DNA of 55,921 nt from a virus. Taxonomy: Duplodnaviria; Heunggongvirae; Uroviricota; Caudoviricetes. Numbering within the stretch: the stretch's first letter is position 1; every line of letters begins with the position of its first letter. The notes under the pieces are model-generated. The model did not search any database. It was not told where the DNA came from and saw nothing but the letters and a program-made list of their open reading frames with translations. Both the position numbers and the translations under genes were made by a program. The stretch is taken from the IMG/VR virus record IMGVR_UViG_2541047806_000003, positions 1-55,921 of that record, one strand, 5' to 3'. This document shows, one piece after another, positions 36,044-39,258 of the stretch.

Positions 36044-36233
36044 CCTTCACCTCGCGACGATAGATTTCTACTGGCTTAACCGGAATAGCGTTAAAATCCC
36101 CTTCATCCAGTGCGGCAATAAACGTTAGCGCCAACCGTGCTTCAACACCGCTTAAATACTTGCACCATGCATCACCGTTATAATCTTCAAAAAGAATAAT
36201 CACTTTTTTTCATGTTTATCTCTTGTTGTTTCA

Positions 36234-36956
36234 TTATTCACCCCGTGTCACTCGTTTAATTTCGTTATCAGCCCGCGCCTCTTCTTTGAACAATTCAGTA
36301 ATGGCGTCTTCATAGAAAGCACGGTATTTCTTCCACCACGTTGATCGGCTTACCGGAAATACAAGCTGATTAACCGCACGCCGGACAAGATCTACAGGGA
36401 AACGCGAGTACCCGCGCCCGCCGCAATGCTGGCACGTTTTGAACACTGGCATTTCCGCTGCTTCACTGGCTGCTTTATCCGGTATCTCGCCGCGCCCTTT
36501 GCATCGTTTACAATGATTGAGAACTTTTCCATGCCCCTTGCATTTTTTGCAAAGGTGTTTTTCTCCGTAGTCGTCAAACGTAAATTTATATCCGCCGCAA
36601 TCCATACAAGTTTTTTCTGTCGCGGCACTCTGGCAGTAATCCCGAAACGCGAAAACGGCAACAAGAATAATAAGATCATTGCGTTTGTCCTCGTCCAGCT
36701 CCATGACGTATTCGTAATCTTTTGCCATAGCTCTTAAACGCTCTGTAAGCAAAACTACGGCCCTGTGTTTTTCGGCTTGCGATAGTTCCATCTTCCCTAA
36801 AAAAGCGCTATAACCAAGCTCTACGCGCGATTGCGCCATACCTGCTGCGGTTAGTGCATCAGTAGTATTAAGCGAGTCTGGGGACGTGCCCCGGCTTTCA
36901 TCTGACAAACGCGGTGATTTTGGGAGGTGGAATTTAAGAATAGATTCCAAATTCAT
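36234..36956 (-). CDS. Q-like late-gene regulator candidate with DnaJ-type zinc finger (four CxxCxGxG-like repeats)
   Basis: 240 aa; CMDCGG, CKKCKGHG, CKRCKGRG, CQHCGGRG; sits after rusA/ninG as Q does in lambdoid phages. Confidence 0.45.
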   Translation of the reverse strand: MNLESILKFHLPKSPRLSDESRGTSPDSLNTTDALTAAGMAQSRVELGYSAFLGKMELSQAEKHRAVVLLTERLRAMAKDYEYVMELDEDKRNDLIILVAVFAFRDYCQSAATEKTCMDCGGYKFTFDDYGEKHLCKKCKGHGKVLNHCKRCKGRGEIPDKAASEAAEMPVFKTCQHCGGRGYSRFPVDLVRRAVNQLVFPVSRSTWWKKYRAFYEDAITELFKEEARADNEIKRVTRGE

Positions 36957-37150
36957 TATTTACCCCCGTAACGTGCAACCAGTCTTTTGCGATCAGATAT
37001 TGATTGCACTAGCTTTCTTTCAAGCTCTTTAAGCGCAAGCAATTCTCGCATGTGGAAAACATGTATTTGTCGTACAGTTTCCAAATCATGCTCGTCGCGC
37101 TGAATATCTATTTGCAGATCTTTAATTTCGTTTTTCATTGTTACCACCAC
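36956..37150 (-). CDS. Small coiled-coil protein
   Basis: 64 aa, coupled between rusA and Q-like gene. Confidence 0.4.
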   Translation of the reverse strand: MVVTMKNEIKDLQIDIQRDEHDLETVRQIHVFHMRELLALKELERKLVQSISDRKRLVARYGGK

Positions 37151-37542
37151 ATATTAGTCAAGTATTCGTTAATATCCGGTAACAGGTCGCCGCGTTCGCG
37201 TACCTTGATAAACAATCGCCCTCTTTTTACCTTCCGGCAGCGGACAAATTTCATTGCGTCAACCTGGCTATCATCAGCCCAAAAACCGGAATAAGTTATA
37301 GCGTCAAATAATGCCTTCCCTACATTGTCAATATCGCGGCGTCTGTTATCTGGCGGTGCAATATACACCGTTATTGATAGCCTACACTTAAGATTAATTT
37401 TCAGATTAAGCAGTTTTATAATGTCTTTTACCTGCTCCCTGTATTCCTTACCTTCCTTGCTTATATAGTGGAAACCGCGCGAATGCCGGTAATATTTATT
37501 GTTCGATGGCGGGTAAGGCAGGCTAAAAGTATATTCATTCAT
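37141..37542 (-). CDS. rusA: Holliday-junction resolvase RusA
   Basis: 133 aa; N-terminal FSLPYPPSNNKYYRHSRG typical of RusA. Confidence 0.85.
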   Translation of the reverse strand: MNEYTFSLPYPPSNNKYYRHSRGFHYISKEGKEYREQVKDIIKLLNLKINLKCRLSITVYIAPPDNRRRDIDNVGKALFDAITYSGFWADDSQVDAMKFVRCRKVKRGRLFIKVRERGDLLPDINEYLTNMWW

Positions 37543-38144
37543 GCTGCCTTTCTCCTTAAGGCGTCCAATTTCGCCTGGTAAACTTTAATGATCTCCTTGC
37601 ATTCTTCGATCGTCCATTTATGCGTATCGTTGTTGTTCTCCAGAGCTACCACCCTGGCGAGGCCAATTTTTCGAATCAGCGCCGGGCGATACCCTCCGAT
37701 GTTGCCGTCTAGTATCTGGTTGCAGTGCCTACATTGCTTGTGGGCGTTATCTTCATTGAAGCGAAGGTGTCCGGCGGCGGCTACAGTCCTATAATGGCCC
37801 GCATCGTATCCGCATTGCTCACCGTAATAAGTCCCGCAGGATATACACGGCAAACTCGCGTCACGCTCTCGGATATAGGCATTAAATACAGCTTGTGCCT
37901 GCTTTAACCAATAACTACGCGGATTTAACTGCCTCCGCTTCCGGTTGCGTTCTTCACGCTGGCTATCACGGCGTTTCTTCCGTTCCATAGCCTTCATAGC
38001 CTTCTCACGGTCGCGGCATAGCTGATCAAACTTCAGCTCTTCCAGACACTCATCACTGCACCACGTTTGATTGTGATATTTAGGCTCAAAAAAAACGCCG
38101 CAGCATTTGCAACGGCGTCTTATTGGTTTTTTAGGGTTCTGCAT
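37539..38144 (-). CDS. ninG: NinG/Rap-like recombination protein
   Basis: Cys-rich (CKCCGVFFEP...CISCG...CRHCN), Arg/Lys-rich; start set to MQNPKK (SD GGGGTGG). Confidence 0.7.
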   Translation of the reverse strand: MQNPKKPIRRRCKCCGVFFEPKYHNQTWCSDECLEELKFDQLCRDREKAMKAMERKKRRDSQREERNRKRRQLNPRSYWLKQAQAVFNAYIRERDASLPCISCGTYYGEQCGYDAGHYRTVAAAGHLRFNEDNAHKQCRHCNQILDGNIGGYRPALIRKIGLARVVALENNNDTHKWTIEECKEIIKVYQAKLDALRRKAA

Positions 38145-38158
38145 AAAAACCACCCCGA

Positions 38159-38335
38159 TTATTTTTGATTCTCTGTTTCGTTCAGCCTTTCGGCGTGTCC
38201 GGCCCTTAGCGAGTGATCTACACATTCGTTGCACTCGTTACATTCTCCTTTTTTCGTGCTGCATACATTGCACATTGCACGCATGACGCTTTCTCGTTCA
38301 TAGTCGTCATGCCATTGGTAATCATCAAAAGACAT
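38159..38335 (-). CDS. Small Cys-rich protein (NinF-position)
   Basis: 58 aa, CNVCSTKKGECNECNEC, SD AGGAG. Confidence 0.35.
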   Translation of the reverse strand: MSFDDYQWHDDYERESVMRAMCNVCSTKKGECNECNECVDHSLRAGHAERLNETENQK

Positions 38336-38493
38336 AATGCTCTCTCCTTTTCAGGTGATTTCTACGCATTTCAGCGCTGCCGGATTTTTAAAGAGCATTT
38401 TGTTTGCTTGAAGTATACAAAATGGATACCCCAAACAAGGCAAAAAGCGCCATTATGTGATCCGCATCACGCAATGACGCCATTTTGTAAATT

Positions 38494-39258
38494 TCAGTCC
38501 GGTAAAACGCGGTTAAGCGTAGTACGATTGATGGCCCAGTCGTTAGCCAGGAATACAGCACGGGCAAAGCCGCGCGGCGTTAGTGAGCGGATCATCTTAG
38601 TGCGTTTCGACTTTCCTCCTAACTTAGCGTGCTGTTTGCTGTCTTCCCATTCATCCGGCATAGGTACAGGCCGGAATAGCGGCTGCTTAAATCCATTCCC
38701 GCACCAGATACAAGTTTTCTTCGTGTAGGCGTCGCGGTCGGCGATGTATTCCGGGAAAGCTGGATGCTTATCATCTTCCGGCAGGTAGCCACCGTAAGCG
38801 CACGGATTAAAGATAAAATCCGGTTTACGCCATAACGTTGACAGTGCGCCCACCGGATTTTCCACCATCCACGGGACGTGGTACATATCAGCAAGCGTTT
38901 CTACCAGTTTTGCGTTGTATGCCGCCTTCTGCTGGAAGTAAGGATCTTTTTTCCGCTTATCAGCAAACCAGCGAGCGCCGGACACCGCAAGATCGTCGCA
39001 CGGAGGAAAGCCCAGGATAATGTCAGGATCTGGATAAACAGACAATTCAGGGGAGAACATTGCCAGGAAATGGCTGTCAATCCATACGTTGACATACTCA
39101 ATGTTCGGATGAATGATTTTGACGCCTTCATAATCGCCGTGATTAGCGCCATCATAGTTGAAGCAATAGCATTTATAACCAGCGTCGGCCCAATCTTTAA
39201 CGGCGTATCCGCTGCCGTCGTACAGCGACCACACCACCCAATTTCTAAGCCCACTCAT
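38494..39258 (-). CDS. Putative DNA (cytosine-5) methyltransferase-like protein (short)
   Basis: 254 aa; motif-IV-like GFPPCDDLAVSG and motif-VI-like VENPVGAL; LYDGSGY resembles motif I. Confidence 0.5.
   Translation of the reverse strand: MSGLRNWVVWSLYDGSGYAVKDWADAGYKCYCFNYDGANHGDYEGVKIIHPNIEYVNVWIDSHFLAMFSPELSVYPDPDIILGFPPCDDLAVSGARWFADKRKKDPYFQQKAAYNAKLVETLADMYHVPWMVENPVGALSTLWRKPDFIFNPCAYGGYLPEDDKHPAFPEYIADRDAYTKKTCIWCGNGFKQPLFRPVPMPDEWEDSKQHAKLGGKSKRTKMIRSLTPRGFARAVFLANDWAINRTTLNRVLPD

Follow-up and report, generated by a model that had tools for sequence, protein, structure and literature searches.

A lambda-family Q gene and a candidate late promoter cassette lie 6 kb apart in an mEp021-like coliphage

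Genes and features of the locus

The window, meaning the whole stretch of 55.9 kb that was analysed, is the DNA of an mEp021-like (mEpimmI) coliphage, with 86-89% DNA identity to mEp044, mEp010, mEp013, mEp554, mEp515, mEp021 and MagusPhagus. In the human gut, phages of the mEpimmI group are reported to match lambdoid phages in frequency. They depend on Nus factors, 'Q-lambda-like proteins' are said to be required, and an N-like antiterminator, Gp17, has been characterised experimentally in the group together with three nut sites (PMC11893012). The same 2025 paper on the group makes no mention of a late promoter or a Q target (PMC11893012), and no published description of a late promoter was found for the mEpimmI group.

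The gene of interest is a 240-aa ORF that runs from ATG to stop on the minus strand. It lies after rusA and ninG, as the original prediction had placed it, with NinG, RusA and a 64-aa ORF upstream. The position is that of Q in lambda, at the end of the nin region. The genes and features around it are the following:

36956-38234, minus strand: upstream genes of the Q operon (NinG, RusA and the 64-aa ORF)
37539-38234, minus strand: NinG (PF05766)
37141-37542, minus strand: RusA (PF05866)
36956-37150, minus strand: 64-aa ORF, its stop overlapping the Q start
36234-36956, minus strand: Q gene, an ATG-to-stop ORF of 240 aa, lambda-family late-gene antiterminator
30126-36203, minus strand: block of about 25 small ORFs (56-121 aa, functions unknown), closely packed head to tail
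34416-34445, minus strand: conserved hairpin with a T-run inside an ORF of the block, probable intrinsic terminator
28869-30019, minus strand: first late genes, namely holin (29819-30019), lysozyme (29327-29818) and an Rz-like gene (28869-29339)

The terminase, head and tail genes come after the lysis genes, also on the minus strand, and extend as far as about 1.9 kb; the late genes (lysis, head, tail) together span about 28 kb of the minus strand.

Identity of the 240-residue protein and its zinc-ribbon arm

The 240-aa ORF matched the Pfam HMM PF03589 'Antiterm' with 104 bits, the cut-off being 26.7, and phrog_127, 'anti-termination protein Q-like', was a full-length match with E = 1.4e-78. 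The groups behind the solved structures define PF03589 as the Q-lambda family (PMC9388147; PMC7171158). The HMMs for Q21 (PF06530) and Q82 (PF06323) gave no match to the ORF at E <= 0.01. In a sequence search of the PDB, the best match was lambda Q itself (7ubm_Q, E = 1e-39), which paired residues 1-122 of the ORF with 1-123 of lambda Q and residues 148-238 with 117-207. A global alignment with lambda Q ran end to end with one 31-residue gap and showed identity at 84 of the 207 aligned positions, or 41% overall; within residues 1-44 the figure was 26 of 44, or 59%.

The structure of the protein was modelled with AlphaFold2, using 33 homologues as input, and the model had a mean pLDDT of 82.7. 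When it was searched with Foldseek, all of the PDB matches at E <= 0.001 were Q-lambda structures. The top match was 7ubn_Q, the NusA-engaged form (E = 9e-15, TM 0.75). The model contains the helical body with helix-turn-helix and the zinc-ribbon arm that define the Q-lambda fold. The variable sites of the gene are distributed 18/16/90 over the three codon positions, indicating purifying selection, and Q was intact and under purifying selection in all of the genomes examined.

The identity of Q to its counterparts in mEp013 and mEp021 is 91-95%. Homologues with 81-94% identity are named 'antitermination protein' at NCBI, and mEp021_37 is annotated as 'putative late gene regulator Q'; in 5 of the 6 published mEp genomes examined, Q is labelled 'hypothetical protein'. 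Judged by its sequence and modelled fold, the 240-aa ORF is an ordinary, already annotated member of the Q-lambda family, and the annotation of the gene as Q can be regarded as settled.

The protein can be divided by comparison with lambda Q as follows:

[quoted passage not shown]
36408-36620, minus strand: zinc-ribbon arm, residues 113-183, with four Cys knuckles
36513-36608, minus strand: insertion of 31-32 residues relative to lambda Q, about residues 117-148 (the single alignment gap)
36243-36407, minus strand: C-terminal half of the Q body with helix-turn-helix, residues 184-238

The nozzle segment, the four-helix body with helix-turn-helix and the zinc-ribbon arm are all shared with lambda Q (PDB 4MO1, 7UBJ-7UBN; PF03589). 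[quoted passage not shown] Their counterparts here, G39 and T237, are invariant in the 33 homologues. The C-terminal residues 184-238 align with 153-207 of lambda Q, with helices predicted by AlphaFold2 at 188-198 and 204-237, and this part of the body is near-identical across the 15 compared loci of the phage group. The DNA-recognition residues, unlike the overall architecture, differ from those of lambda Q.

The arm is about 71 aa long with four knuckles, whereas that of lambda Q is 39 aa long with two and comprises residues 114-152 (PMC9388147). The CxxC knuckles begin at residues 117, 136, 149 and 175. Three are exact CxxCxGxG motifs (CKKCKGHG, CKRCKGRG and CQHCGGRG) and the fourth, CMDCGGYK, is degenerate, in agreement with the four CxxCxGxG-like repeats originally described. 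All eight Cys of the arm are invariant in the alignment of 33 homologues, and the knuckle pattern is therefore not a matter of chance. Some homologues have CxC or CxxxxC in one knuckle, and knuckles 1 and 2 are separated by a loop of variable length, about 15 to 55 aa.

Knuckles 3 and 4 (C149/C152/C175/C178) align with C118/C121/C144/C147 of lambda Q. They are 26 residues apart, the same spacing as lambda C118-C144, and a helix is modelled between them at 161-167, where lambda has helix H3. The other two knuckles, C117/C120 and C136/C139, are contributed by the insertion and presumably provide a second Zn site. Because the 26-residue spacing and the modelled helix match lambda, knuckles 3 and 4 would represent the ancestral zinc site and knuckles 1 and 2 the added one. 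The spacing also suggests two successive ribbons (1+2, 3+4) and not the nested arrangement (1+4, 2+3) of DnaJ.

The original prediction had set the DnaJ-type zinc finger against a classical lambda Q sequence. That contrast is false, since the alignment with lambda Q extends over the whole protein and two CxxCxGxG motifs, CRDCHGTG and CGRCKGVG, are present in lambda Q itself. The 'DnaJ-type' motifs are the arm of lambda Q, duplicated or enlarged here. When the Q and DnaJ families were compared by HMM, as had been proposed, PF03589 scored above its cut-off, whereas DnaJ_CXXCXGXG (PF00684) reached 26.2 bits, below its cut-off of 32.7, and covered residues 136-183 only, a stretch of 48 residues. 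Unlike DnaJ, whose CR domain (PF00684; PDB 1EXK) was compared together with anti-TRAP, the ORF had no Pfam match to a J domain or to the DnaJ C-terminal substrate-binding domain. DnaJ was absent from the fold matches of the whole protein and appeared as a weak match when the arm was modelled alone. The resemblance to the DnaJ knuckle hairpin is weak, at the level of motif and local fold, and membership of the DnaJ CR family is excluded. In precomputed public annotation, PF00684 stands beside PF03589 in many of the long-form homologues.

Of 60 sampled phage records with a homologue, about half have the long-form, four-knuckle arm, whereas the solved Q-lambda structures that were found are all of the short form of lambda. 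Four Cys pairs in the arm are also found in ES18 gp73, in the Q of vB_EcoS-640R1 (Qin-like) and in the Q of the Klebsiella phage ST16-OXA48phi5.1, with 33-35% identity over 99% of the length. The third Cys pair of ES18 gp73 is CxC and not CxxC, and the three proteins differ from the present one in having a longer loop, 35-55 aa, between knuckles 1 and 2.

The holin-proximal cassette and its separation from Q

A candidate late promoter of the pR' type was found directly upstream of the holin gene. Its elements are:

30113-30118, minus strand: -35 hexamer TTGTAG of the pR'-like candidate, variable among relatives
30112-30096, minus strand: spacer, 17 nt
30096-30108, minus strand: invariant spacer segment TAAACAAACAGAT, candidate Q-binding element, directly 5' of the -10
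30090-30095, minus strand: -10 hexamer TAAAAT
30089-30083, minus strand: gap, 7 nt
30077-30082, minus strand: -10-like AACAAT, candidate sigma-dependent pause element, in a layout shared with lambda-type cassettes
30040-30062, minus strand: intrinsic terminator (tR'-like), GC-rich hairpin with a T-run
30019, minus strand: holin ATG

The cassette ends 20 nt before the holin ATG. Both strands of the window were scanned for a -10 hexamer (at least 5 of 6 positions) followed after 6-7 nt by an A-initial -10-like hexamer and, within 70 nt, by a terminator with a perfect stem. This cassette was the one match, and shuffled sequences gave none (0/100). From the Q stop to the -35 hexamer the distance is 6116 nt, which bears out the original observation that the only clear pair resembling pR'-tR' is 6 kb away, upstream of the holin. 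A second copy of the candidate Q-binding element with its -10 was not present in the window at <=3 mismatches.

The terminator begins about 20 nt past the presumed start, giving a predicted terminated RNA of about 43 nt, and the RNA from the presumed start has a folding energy of -21 kcal/mol (z = -3.5). A terminator is annotated at the same place in mEp021, mEp010, mEp013, mEp044 and mEp515. All of the motif-bearing IMG/VR contigs (36/36) had the cassette about 80 nt before the holin ATG, and the same was true of mEp021, mEp044 and MagusPhagus. A candidate late promoter, pause site and terminator are thereby located for the mEpimmI coliphage group.

In lambda pR', the Q-binding element lies between the -35 and the -10, and Q is loaded at the downstream -10-like element, which serves as the sigma-dependent pause site. 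The DNA site of lambda Q is 13 bp long (PMC9388147). Among 31 distinct related sequences, the column identity jumps from about 65% to >95% at about 30108 and remains high from the spacer through the holin gene. This conservation boundary, at about -25, shows the cassette core to be constrained and the small-ORF block not. The invariance of TAAACAAACAGAT just 5' of the -10 makes it a candidate Q-binding element. The -35 hexamer is replaced by TCGCGC, which has no -35 match, in 9 of the 31 distinct relatives; MagusPhagus carries the -35-less variant. The variant of the Q arm (240 or 242 aa) and that of the upstream promoter assort independently in 15 loci, and the proposed pairing of Q with the cassette is supported by architecture and conservation but not by covariation.

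The succession of a -10, a gap of 6-7 nt, a -10-like AAnnAT and a terminator ahead of the lysis genes is that of lambda, where the corresponding sequences are TAAATT, TGACTC and AACGAT, with a gap of 6 nt compared to 7 nt here. The spacer sequence is unlike that of lambda. In lambda the terminator follows the pause element by about 175 nt, as opposed to 15 nt here, and the Q stop is about 45 nt from the -35, as opposed to 6.1 kb. Measured from the start, the lambda terminator is nearly 200 nt away and the present one about 20 nt, a difference that was counted against a lambda-type action of Q at this site.

A canonical pR' directly after Q was considered and rejected, since the promoter scan showed no promoter-like site there and the next ORF begins 30 nt past the Q stop. 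The other four-knuckle phages differ in this respect. ES18, 640R1 and the Klebsiella phage have a non-coding gap directly after Q, in which a canonical cassette could be read in ES18 (TAATAT, CGTTTC, TAACAGT, terminator, the latter about 120 nt past the Q stop) and in 640R1 (TAAATT, CGTCAT, AATAAT, terminator, followed by a tRNA).

The split layout is a real trait of the phage group. In 15 loci of the mEp021-like group that hold both elements, the gap between Q and the cassette is 1.9-6.7 kb; mEp021, with its Q (gp37), has a block of 1.9 kb compared to 6.1 kb here. Furthermore, a more distant lineage, in which Q is only 48% identical and 257 aa long, has the same split layout: NinG, RusA, a small ORF and Q are followed by 3 kb of arrayed small ORFs and then by TATAAT-6 nt-AATAAT, a terminator and the holin. 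The literature search found no published description of split Q cassettes or of a cis-acting Q, nor one of the split arrangement in this abundant group of gut coliphages. The holin-side position of the cassette is the sole notable architectural point, a minor variant that leaves the known mechanism unchanged.

The ORFs of the block that were scanned belonged to PHROG families of unknown function or had no match, and none was Q-like. Ten of them were also scanned against Pfam and gave no relevant match; those at 35262-35471 and 35065-35265 were scanned against Pfam only. A second Q-like gene between Q and the holin was rejected on these results, and the original proviso of a different Q-like gene beside the late promoter found nothing to sustain it. 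No tRNAs or known RNA families were found in the region. Promoter-like matches across 29000-38500 numbered 10, with 18.8 expected from shuffles, and are thus not in excess.

The block most likely forms the end of the early rightward operon and is transcribed together with Q from the early rightward promoter, under the N-like antiterminator. Its position upstream of the late promoter points to early-operon transcription and not to Q-dependent late cargo. In Shiga-toxin phages several kb of accessory cargo also lie between Q and the holin, and the late promoter is beside Q with the cargo downstream of it. The cargo there is Q-dependent, whereas the block upstream of the promoter here should be Q-independent. 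The predicted early expression of this hypervariable array, as opposed to its expression as late cargo, bears on how the functions of its genes are guessed.

However, simple run-on does not fully describe transcription of the block, as the hairpin at 34445-34416 shows. About 31 nt, third codon positions included, are invariant among about 24 distinct relatives, and in one relative the stem carries two complementary synonymous changes, a compensatory pair. From this pattern of conservation the hairpin is probably a real terminator that would have to be overridden by the N-like Gp17 system. Another hairpin, at 31802-31821 on the plus strand, was rejected as a terminator of the block transcript since it has no T-run on the sense (minus) strand.

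Mode of action and alternative readings

The reading preferred here, with a probability of about 0.78, is that the ORF is a functional lambda-type Q that acts on the cassette at 30118-30040 (minus strand) and reaches it by diffusion. Q proteins are diffusible; they recognise an element in the DNA of the late promoter and are loaded onto polymerase that has paused (PMC9388147). Because Q is diffusible, action 6 kb away from its own gene needs nothing special. In classical lambda genetics a partial cis preference of Q was reported. If that preference is general, it would have been given up by the mEpimmI group, which offers a natural means of testing whether Q has to be encoded beside its target. 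By analogy with lambda, we infer binding of Q at the cassette, pausing and read-through, as well as the early timing proposed for the block. The helix-turn-helix body and zinc arm would bind the spacer site of the late promoter. Sigma region 2 on AACAAT would hold the polymerase paused at about +16/+17, where Q could engage it. [quoted passage not shown] The nozzle is expected to block formation of the hairpin from about +21, so that the terminator would be read through into the late operon of about 28 kb. The closeness of the terminator to the start fits this mechanism, in which Q is already loaded by the time the hairpin is transcribed.

The possibility was considered that Q is loaded elsewhere, near its own gene or within the block, for example upstream of the 34445-34416 hairpin, and that the holin cassette is a Q-independent promoter with an attenuator. 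In mEp021 and mEp515 this conserved hairpin lies about 260 nt past the Q stop, which recalls the lambda order Q-pR'-tR', and the window has a weak promoter-like sequence, CTGGCA-16-GATAAT, at 34690-34663, in addition to the conservation and the one compensatory change of the 34445-34416 hairpin. However, these promoter-like hexamers vary among relatives and lie inside an ORF whose variation by codon position, 18/18/47, is coding-like, and a hidden cassette at 34690-34567, the segment that is directly after Q in mEp021 and mEp515, was rejected on these grounds. Moreover, there is no pair of -10 and pause element with a terminator near 34445-34416, and the hairpin region is 1.5 kb from Q in the window, so adjacency is not restored. 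The cassette next to the holin, on the other hand, has the full lambda-type layout and is invariant. Loading of Q at another site is therefore considered unlikely. It is more improbable still that transcription of the late genes depends chiefly on read-through from the early promoter, governed by the N-like Gp17, with Q dispensable or vestigial. The group does possess this characterised antiterminator with its three nut sites (PMC11893012), and Q, the block and the late genes share a single strand that has no strong promoters within it. However, every genome examined has an intact Q that is under purifying selection, residue G39 in the nozzle segment is invariant, as are the Zn ligands, and the invariant cassette with its pause element is unexplained by read-through alone.

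The original prediction had left two alternatives, that Q acts in trans across the block or that the protein is not the late antiterminator. Action of Q in trans fits all of the evidence. The other alternative is unsupported, since HMM, sequence and fold all identify Q-lambda, the gene is under purifying selection and no other Q-like gene was found. In its explicit form, that of a DnaJ-like zinc-finger protein with some other role, such as a chaperone cofactor, it is barely credible. The DnaJ match is below the cut-off and limited to 48 residues, while the remainder of the 240-aa protein is lambda Q end to end. The same knuckle motif is present in lambda Q itself, there is neither a J domain nor a DnaJ C-terminal domain, and the whole-protein fold matches Q-lambda only.

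One further proposal is rather doubtful as a whole. In the mEpimmI phages a recombination hot spot for small accessory genes may have physically separated the Q gene from its target cassette, and the second zinc module may have an additional effect. Were this separation true, the accessory genes upstream of the late promoter would be expressed early and independently of Q. The second zinc module may alter engagement of the promoter or of the repositioned sigma region 4. Such altered engagement, if true, could let Q act at promoters without a -35, as in the relatives with TCGCGC at that position.

Terminator-like hairpins in the block

Two hairpins were found within the block of small minus-strand ORFs that separates the gene for the late antiterminator, Q, from the late promoter:

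34416-34445, minus strand, hairpin with T-run inside ORF 34230-34508
31802-31821, plus strand, strong hairpin resembling a terminator, whose T-run is confined to the plus strand

The comparison of ~24 distinct relatives showed ~31 nt without variation at the 34416-34445 hairpin and its T-run, third codon positions included. In one relative, the stem carries complementary synonymous changes (GCGGG/CCCGC to GCGCG/CGCGC). The hairpin lies 1.8 kb after Q in the window and only ~260 nt after Q in mEp021. This is probably an intrinsic terminator that functions from within coding sequence. The 31802-31821 hairpin occupies the short gap separating two minus-strand block ORFs and would stop antisense transcription and not the block's own transcript.

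The block also holds tandem paralogues on the minus strand (30126-30478 and 32353-33258). Two neighbouring ORFs in 30126-30478 both match phrog_15318. The family phrog_31142 is hit by three neighbouring ORFs in 32573-33258, to which the ORF at 32353-32580, judged by eye, seems to be related.

Variants of the late promoter and of Q

In 9 of the 31 distinct relatives, including L004 (MagusPhagus), L011, L040 and other IMG/VR loci, the late promoter has a different upstream half (…ATAATCGCGCATAAAAAACAAATAGAT TAAAAT) in the region corresponding to 30113-30125. The mosaic boundary between the variants is at ~-25. The alternative lacks a recognisable -35 hexamer, which raises the question of how such a promoter initiates.

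The first zinc module of Q (residues 117-148, 36513-36608) was compared with that of L004, L007, L009, L011, L033, L034 and L045. Two versions circulate, CMDCGGYKFTFDDYGEKHLC in the 240-aa Q and CPKCGGHGHLPNPYCEYTSTIC in the 242-aa Q, in proteins that are otherwise near-identical. This looks like an exchange of modules inside the Q arm. The module version is independent of the late-promoter variant.

A second lineage and the published records

Q and the promoter-terminator cassette are split likewise in L041-L044, Logan assemblies of ~53 kb phages whose Q (P0010) is 48% identical. Their block is 3 kb and includes a HAD/PNKP-type phosphatase gene, and their cassette reads TATAAT, TCCCTC, AATAAT, followed by a terminator with a 10-bp stem.

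Among the six mEp genomes that have been published, five (GenBank PP180001-PP180005; L002, L045-L048) label both Q and the holin 'hypothetical protein'. In the mEp044 record, no holin gene is called and the lysozyme ORF is extended.
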